Below the pieces are notes generated by a model that was not told the DNA's origin, did not search any database, and was given only the letters and a program-made list of their open reading frames with translations. Below, in pieces: positions 14,310-15,979 of a stretch of DNA of 31,970 bases. Position numbers and translations under genes: made by a program. Position 1 is the stretch's first letter. Every line of letters begins with the position of its first letter. Source of the DNA: a virus (lineage: Duplodnaviria > Heunggongvirae > Uroviricota > Caudoviricetes); the IMG/VR virus record IMGVR_UViG_2537562192_000019; one strand, written 5' to 3'.

Positions 14310-14643
14310 GTTTTGCCCTGAAACTGGCGCGTGAGATGGGGCGACCCGACTGGCGCGCCATGCTTGCCGGGATGTCATCCACGGAGTATGCCGACTGGCA
14401 CCGCTTTTACAGTACCCATTATTTTCATGATGTTCTGCTGGATATGCACTTTTCCGGGCTGACGTACACCGTGCTCAGCCTGTTTTTCAGCGATCCGGAT
14501 ATGCATCCGCTGGATTTCAGTCTGCTGAACCGGCGTGAGGCTGACGAAGAGCCTGAAGATGATGTGCTGATTGTAGTGGCACACTAAATTTGGCCACCTG
14601 ATGAAAGGTGATATTCTCACCACAACACAAAACAGGTGACTTA

Positions 14644-14955
14644 ATGAACAAGAAAACCAAACGAACCTTCACCCCTGAGTTCAGGCTGGAATGTGCACAG
14701 CTGATTGTTGATAAGGGCTACTCATATCGACAGGCCAGTGAAGCGATGAATGTCGGTTCAACCACGCTTGAGAGCTGGGTACGCCAGCTCAGGCGAGAGC
14801 GCCAGGGTATTACGCCCTCTGCCACACCCATTACTCCAGACCAGCAACGTATCCGCGAGCTGGAAAAGCAAGTTCGCCGTCTGGAGGAACAAAATACGAT
14901 ATTAAAAAAGGCTACCGCGCTCTTAATGTCCGACTCGCTGAACGGTTCACGATAG
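14644..14955 (+). CDS. IS3-family transposase OrfA (HTH DNA-binding plus leucine zipper), 103 aa
   Basis: [55 protein letters not shown]...[18 protein letters not shown]; the C-terminal [11 protein letters not shown] motif and the A_AAA_AAG frameshift heptamer at 14904..14910 are IS911-like. Confidence 0.88.
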
Positions 14956-15822
14956 CCGCCAGACTAAGTGACAGCCACACGGTTGTCAGCCTGTGTTCTG
15001 CTCTGGAAATACACCGCAGCAGTTACCGGTACTGGCGAAAACGACGCGATACGGTTAATCCGGCACGAGTCAGGTTGTGCAGCGAAATACGCCGGGCGTG
15101 GAACCAAAGTCGGGGCTCTGCGGGCGCGCGCACTCTGGCTGAAATGCTGACTCAAAACGGCGTCCCGATGAGCCGTTACCGTGCCGGACGTCTGATGAAA
15201 TATCTGAACCTGAGCAGTTGTCAGCCCGGAAAACATCAGTATAAAAATGCCCGTCAGGAGCATACCAGCCTGCCGAATCTGCTTGAGCGTCAGTTCGCAG
15301 TACCGGAGCCAGACCGGGTATGGTGTGGAGATATTACGTATCTCTGGGGCAGGAAATCGCTGGTGCTATCTGGCGGTTGTTATGGATCTTTTTGCCCGCA
15401 GGGTTATCGGCTGGAGTCTGTCAGCGCATGCCGATACCGCACTGATAAGCAGTGCCCTGCGGATGGCCTATGAGACGCGTGGCCAACCCCGGGATGTCGT
15501 GTTCCATAGCGACCAGGGAAGCCAGTATACAGGCCTTAAATATCAACAACTTCTCTGGCGTTGCAGAATAAATCAAAGCGTCAGTCGGCGGGGAAACTGC
15601 TGGGATAACAGCCCCATGGAACGCTTCTTCCGCAGTCTGAAAACAGAATGGGTGCCAACGAATGGTTACGCAGGCAAGGACGAGGCCCGGCAGCAAATTA
15701 ATGATTACATATTGAACTACTACAACAGCGTCAGACCTCACCATTATAACGGTGGGCTGACGCCGGAAGAGTCAGAGAACAGATACCATTTTTACTGTAA
15801 AACCGTGGCCAATATTACTTGA
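14907..15822 (+). pseudogene. IS3-family transposase OrfB (DDE integrase catalytic domain), internally frameshifted by an extra G in a G-run (15346..15349)
   Basis: The -1 frame is open from the slippery site through ...[11 protein letters not shown] (15345..15347), then GGGG disrupts it. The rest ([22 protein letters not shown]...HSDQGSQYT...[15 protein letters not shown]...) is in another frame (ORF 15247..15822). GGG instead of GGGG would give a continuous OrfB. Confidence 0.8.
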
Positions 15823-15979
15823 CCACTACAGATGCAGAAAGCGGCAGGGCTTGCCGGAGGCGTCCGCTTTGGCCCGGACGTGAATGAAGTTATCCCCGTT
15901 TCCCCGGATGAGGCGGACATGACGGAGGATGACGTAATGCTGATGACAGTATCAGAAGGGATCGCAGGAGGAGTCCGGT

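Follow-up and report, generated by a model that had tools for sequence, protein, structure and literature searches.

The window analysed here, a stretch of 31,970 nt from a lambdoid prophage, has a Qin-site context and carries an insertion sequence (IS) inside the gene pair that encodes the tail assembly chaperones. The genes and frames of the G-T-H region given below are on the plus strand. Gene G (13887-14309) is intact and encodes the 140-aa tail assembly chaperone gpG, which matched Pfam PF06894 Phage_TAC_2 with 198 bits. The slippery heptamer G GGA AAG for the -1 frameshift from G to T was read from the sequence at 14285-14291 and is also intact; a slip at this site yields ...SAGK|VFDGEL..., like lambda-type gpGT. 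Next comes the 5' part of the T reading frame (14291-14571), with 93 codons of the 144-aa extension, followed by the IS (14572-15830) and by the orphaned 3' part of T (15832-15987). This last part has 51 codons (MQKAAGLAGGVRFG...GIAGGVRYG) and was delimited by its open reading frame, the in silico excision of the IS and alignment. The tape measure gene H (15980-18541, 853 aa) is intact and has its own start; it lies in a block of the type found in the IS-bearing prophage described below. The T frame continues for five codons into the IS (IVVAH) and stops at 14585-14587, giving an interrupted gpGT of 233 aa (228 native residues plus IVVAH) versus 279 aa for the complete fusion. A promoter and terminator scan of 14200-16200 gave nothing above shuffled sequences and so speaks neither for nor against a polar effect on H.

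The gene order V-G-T-H, the G GGA AAG slip site and the 140-aa gpG are shared with phage lambda. When the IS and one GAT copy were deleted in silico, a continuous G-T fusion of 279 aa was obtained, the length of the lambda type, whereas T in the window is interrupted after codon 93 of 144. The T reconstructed in this way matched PF06223 Phage_tail_T, and its sequence was 97.9% identical to lambda T (J02459). The Phage_TAC_2 and Phage_tail_T gene pair lies between the major tail protein and the tape measure genes, with the same synteny as in the Qin-site prophage L005 of strain 2012EL-2448. The excised G-T-H' stretch aligned to viable phages over 952 of 952 bases in one ungapped piece, with identities of 99.4% to ev207, 98.2% to 434 and 98.1% to lambda-type variants. 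The original prediction had placed the split of T between ...EPEDDVL and MQKAAGLAGG..., and had proposed that precise excision restores lambda T and that gpG alone is still encoded. The first point was confirmed by the reading frames, the second by the deletion, and the third by the untouched gpG frame and slip site. The proposal that gpGT would be shortened by its C-terminal third overstated the loss, which is 51 of 279 aa (18%); the same 51 aa amount to 35% of the 144-aa T part.

The IS belongs to the IS3 family and is IS911/ISEc31-like. It measures 1259 bp in the window, versus 1258 bp for the canonical element. Its ends read TGTAGTGG...CCACTACA, which is of the TG...CA type, and GAT stands flush on both sides, at 14569-14571 and 15831-15833. 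In full the junctions read ...GATGATGTGCT-GAT / TGTAGTGGCACAC...TTGACCACTACA / GAT-GCAGAAAGCG... The left terminal inverted repeat (IRL, TGTAGTGGCACACTAAATTTGGCCAC) lies at 14572-14597 and the right one (IRR) at 15805-15830, both assigned to the plus strand as pair I1. The repeats are imperfect, with 77% complementarity over 26 nt, and by themselves they are within chance, because a pair of 22 nt with 77% is also present in the region. The ends of the element were set independently by near-identical copies elsewhere. Other copies that were read out had 1258 bp, the same terminal bases and unrelated flanks, with 3-bp duplications of GCC (L001), GCT (L002) and TGA (L006). The empty-site allele, 99.9% identical on the left, has a single GAT, and the flank alignments overlap by exactly 3 bp. 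The original transposition thus produced a 3-bp GAT duplication. The coordinates 14572-15830, the two GAT copies and the duplication had been predicted correctly. Inverted repeats had been described as intact; they are indeed present, and the ends match those of other copies, but with 77% complementarity they do not exceed chance alone. The predicted length of 1259 bp is right for the copy as written, but the 1259th base is an extra G relative to the canonical element. Among the target sites GAT, GCC, GCT, TGA, CAG and GATG there was no consensus beyond the GCTGAT|G coincidence in T.

Two overlapping reading frames, with orfB in the -1 frame, give the element the IS3-family layout. The first, orfA (14644-14955), encodes 103 aa with a helix-turn-helix domain (Pfam PF01527 HTH_Tnp_1), and the exact orfA protein belongs to a 2106-member cluster that bears the name transposase. 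The A AAA AAG site for the programmed -1 frameshift from orfA to orfB was read at 14904-14910, with an ATT codon in the orfB frame just upstream (14901-14903); the RNA fold downstream of the A6G site had a z of -1.7. The downstream frames contain Pfam PF13276 HTH_21. The 5' part of orfB (14910-15473, -1 frame) holds HTH_21 and the first catalytic Asp (WCGDITY). The 3' part (15350-15822), now in the orfA frame, holds the remaining rve/DDE core, with positions 19-102 of 102 of the PF00665 rve profile as well as rve_3 and rve_2. After removal of one G the two frames give a 392-aa OrfAB, which scored 360.6 bits on the IS3-family model NF033516 of NCBIfam (cut-off 160) over profile positions 1-368 of 369, and this bears out the family assignment made in the original prediction. 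Identical copies are labelled by PGAP as 'IS3 family transposase, programmed frameshift' (WP_085968792.1).

For a specific IS name, PGAP gave plain 'IS3 family transposase', the cluster look-up gave 'transposase' and the phage collection gave fragments only. By sequence comparison, the closest named relative is ISEc31, which PGAP names in complete E. coli genomes. ISEc31 shares the length of 1258 bp, the TGTAGTGG...CCACTACA ends and the orfA/orfB layout with a programmed frameshift, and it produces 3-4-bp duplications, e.g. GATG. Its copies have only about 92-93% nucleotide identity to the window element, and by the ISfinder convention isoforms share at least 95% nucleotide identity. On this comparison the window element is a sister of ISEc31 and not an isoform of it. 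A literature search for ISEc31 yielded resistome surveys only. With IS911 the element shares the A AAA AAG -1 frameshift that gives OrfAB, the upstream ATT codon and the helix-turn-helix plus DDE organisation. IS911 would also resemble the window element in its left-end sequence and in its 3-bp duplications. Unlike the model IS911, the window copy has a frameshifted orfB. The 5' end of orfA (14640-14762, plus strand) also matched Rfam isrC (RF01387) with 150 bits over the full model length. The isrC RNA is a Salmonella island-encoded Hfq-binding sRNA, and the Rfam family appears to be an IS911-like orfA fragment.

The only difference between the window IS and the 1258-bp reference copy is one extra G in a G run at 15346-15349 (GGGG versus GGG). 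The extra base shifts orfB three codons past the Asp of WCGDITY, in the IS3 family the first residue of the DDE triad, and leads to a premature stop at 15471-15473. The OrfAB encoded in the window has 276 aa, of which the last 41 are aberrant; it covers positions 1-230 of 369 of NF033516, lacks most of the rve core and leaves the rve domain divided over two frames. An uninterrupted transposase frame is therefore absent, and the copy as written is not intact. Of 4185 places in 5426 complete E. coli genomes that match this stretch, not one has the variant (the best match was 98.4%, equal to one gap), and it is also absent from six further assemblies in which the T::IS junction is shared and the IS complete. 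The extra G is a mutation private to this copy or else an error in sequencing a homopolymer. As written, the IS would be unable to make its own transposase. Should the extra G be genuine, the copy probably cannot move, because the IS911-type transposase acts mostly in cis, with about 200-fold higher activity there (PMC5009743).

A second single-base change was detected in the terminase large-subunit frame (4891-6858), which has A7 at about 6601-6607 versus A8 in L005 and in the DLP12-site prophage of the same strain (L003). A8 was present in 3164 of 3168 E. coli records and A7 in the other four. Through the resulting -1 frameshift the final ~66 residues of gpA are replaced, and the open frame runs to 6858, overlapping W. 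All other head and tail frames are open and have the expected lengths. The tail module had been called otherwise complete, which agrees with its other open tail genes, but the T::IS insertion is not the sole lesion in view of the frameshifted terminase. As written, the prophage has two independent killing lesions, unless the two homopolymer differences are errors.

Sequencing or assembly error as the source of both the extra G and the missing A is given somewhat less than even odds; on that reading the window holds an ordinary, autonomous 1258-bp IS and an intact terminase gene. Each difference alters the length of a homopolymer run by one base, the variants are absent or nearly absent elsewhere, and the rest of the window shows almost no differences from its nearest relatives. 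A run of four G is short for a systematic error, however, and there are just two such indels in 32 kb with all other long frames open. Slippage mutations of exactly this type also do build up in defective prophages.

The effect of the insertion on gpGT was considered from the conservation of T. It is the T domain that brings the major tail protein gpV to the gpH-gpG complex. When T of phi80, Fels-1 and Ayreon (38-58% identical) was aligned, the most conserved stretch of the C-terminal half was the block D(D/E)xLM..G(I/L)xGG(V/I)R(F/Y)GP, which starts directly after the insertion point. The block is duplicated in lambda-type T, with both copies downstream of the IS and hence missing from the truncated gpGT. 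The distant T homologues align over T residues 1-109, past the cut at residue 93, and the PF06223 profile match spans T residues 29-104. The internal duplication of the T motif was also seen in the DNA, where 15831-15873 resembles 15942-15984 (T proteins compared: L016-L018). No solved structure matched gpGT. Because both copies of the conserved C-terminal block lie beyond the cut, the truncated gpGT has probably lost its function, as judged from this conservation.

The opposite reading is that the 233-aa gpGT works, or works well enough, and that the tail module stays functional. The truncated protein retains 93 of 144 T residues and about 85% of the Phage_tail_T match, and the missing region is acidic and looks partly low-complexity. 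Set against these points are the position of the conserved block right after the cut, the removal of both of its copies and the sensitivity of the gpG:gpGT system even to changes in ratio (PMC4493119, PMC5009743), and we regard a working truncated protein as unlikely. Published work on lambda-type tail assembly assigns tape-measure binding to gpG and the G part of gpGT, and binding of the major tail protein to the T part; neither chaperone product is dispensable (PMC5009743, PMC4493119). In the preferred reading, in which gpGT is disabled, the prophage alone would make no proper tails, and a co-resident lambdoid prophage with intact G and T could supply gpGT in trans. The original prediction of a probably non-functional tail module is thus plausible and gains support from motif conservation, though it keeps the standing of a reading from sequence.

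The IS itself is common in E. coli, with 938 records having a best match of at least 99% identity and up to 17 places per genome. Among plasmids, 308 records, mostly from Escherichia, had a best match of at least 99%, and the plasmid matches overall include some from Klebsiella, Enterobacter and Citrobacter. The left T::IS junction was identical in six complete genomes, all of human STEC isolates, and the exact 83-aa junction protein was found on 24 contigs of public assemblies. An assembly artefact as the source of the insertion was rejected on the basis of the same junction in independent complete genomes. Strain 2012EL-2448 carries the T::IS allele in its DLP12-site prophage L003, adjoining ompT, where PGAP calls the T fragment a pseudogene ('phage tail assembly protein T, incomplete') beside 'IS3 family transposase'. 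The same insertion is thus already annotated in public genomes, and both the IS and the gene are known. The Qin-site prophage of this strain (L005: cspI, gnsB, nohA ... tfaQ, pinQ, ydfK, ydfJ) has an uninterrupted T. In two further junction-bearing genomes the Qin-type prophage matches the window with 94% coverage but has no IS, and the IS in a Qin-site prophage was seen in no complete genome of the collection. Two draft assemblies (L009 and L011) have the same left junction, and in these the right end of the IS (5494) joins unrelated DNA, AACACACATC..., near smpB or an integrase. Such right joins may reflect a rearrangement or deletion mediated by the IS, or else chimeric contigs.

Comparison with the two prophages of 2012EL-2448 revealed a mosaic window. 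Segments 1-14571 and 19001-31000 share 99.9% identity with L005 and show 0 differences per kb in most kilobase bins. The first segment differs by 12 substitutions and one 1-base indel within 3846-6608, plus one at 14536, and the second by eight substitutions. In the bins within 16001-19000 the window differs from L005 at 45-59 positions per kb (12 per kb in 17001-18000), and over 14572-19000 it has 0-6 differences per kb from the IS-bearing L003. This L003-type patch of ~4.4 kb has the IS at its left end, followed by the 3' part of T, H and M. Because L003 and L005 are identical from about 7000 to 14571, its left edge is not placeable.

The insertion had been proposed to be a fairly recent, clean transposition event, and this was not supported by the distribution of the junction or by the mosaic patch. 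A recent and private transposition of an active IS into the window prophage would fit the perfect 3-bp duplication, the complete IS ends and the single base that separates the window IS from the consensus copy, and the element is clearly active in E. coli, where it occupies many sites. The same junction and duplication are nevertheless present in the six complete genomes and on the 24 contigs, the allele of 2012EL-2448 sits in the DLP12-site and not the Qin-site prophage, and the matching Qin-type prophages of the two other genomes have no IS. In addition, the right flank of the IS (about 3.2 kb) has the haplotype of the other prophage, and the transposase gene of the window copy is frameshifted. 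We consider such a private event very unlikely. We infer that the insertion allele is old enough to be common to several strains. Because the IS block matches the DLP12-site prophage and the rest of the window the Qin-site prophage, the IS most likely reached the window prophage by recombination or gene conversion between prophages and not by fresh transposition. The simplest such route is a single past transposition, after which co-resident lambdoid prophages exchanged the allele by homologous recombination or gene conversion.

The mosaic could also be an assembly chimera of two near-identical prophages, with the IS really present in the other prophage only. The 2012EL-2448 prophages share an identical stretch of over 7 kb left of the IS, which is enough to mislead an assembler, and the lack of a Qin-site IS in the complete genomes of the collection would also fit. 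A chimera would require a second switch near 19000, though, where the two types differ by about 4-6%, and recombination and gene conversion among co-resident lambdoid prophages are well documented in EHEC (PMC2669165). We therefore consider a chimera improbable and prefer the transfer of the allele between prophages.

In summary of the locus, we assign a probability of about 0.88 to the reading that a copy of a common E. coli IS3-family IS interrupts the T part of the lambda-type G/GT gene in a lambdoid prophage at the Qin locus, with loss of the C-terminal motifs of T and a probably disabled gpGT, and that the allele is shared and most likely recombination-borne and its IS probably stuck. The T::IS insertion is an ordinary, long-described kind of prophage decay. 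In EHEC lambdoid prophages an IS likewise lies in a structural or packaging gene, e.g. in nu1 of Sp4 of O157 Sakai, and IS-disrupted morphogenesis genes are complemented by co-resident prophages (PMC2669165). The Sp4 case has a different IS and a different gene than the window, and there is no new mechanism here. For annotation, a known IS has turned T of the window into a split pseudogene. The prophage is probably unable to build tails, and perhaps to package DNA, without help from a co-resident prophage, and the IS-bearing allele appears to move between prophages by recombination. The locus is a small, clean example of lambdoid prophage decay and of the exchange of segments, which is well documented in EHEC prophage pools (PMC2669165).

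Additional insertions were found in the same tail block of other prophages. The same IS was present in G with a TGA duplication (L006, 17244-18501) and in T 31 bp downstream of the window site, where it has no target-site duplication and its right end is joined to an Rhs gene (L007, 4724-5981). ISEc31 was found near the 3' end of T with a GATG duplication, at the paralogous GCTGAT|G (L004, 3805-5062), and in U with a CAG duplication (L019, 801-2058). An IS at the 5' end of H was accompanied by a deletion reaching into J and by a nested IS30 (L020, 1661-4141). At least six independent events have thus affected the U-G-T-H block, three in T and one each in G, U and the 5' end of H. Two of the insertions, one of each element and independent of one another, cut at the paralogous GCTGAT|G, each directly ahead of one of the two copies of the T motif. 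That the U-G-T-H block is a preferred landing site of IS911/ISEc31-like elements, by target preference or by selection for tail-less domesticated prophages, we consider improbable. Two other Rfam-type features were detected in the window on the plus strand, both of them expected in a Qin-type prophage: IS009 (RF02111) at 28431-28629, at the 3' end of the tail fibre assembly gene, and a cspA-type thermoregulator 5' UTR at 1924-2309, upstream of the cspI-like gene.
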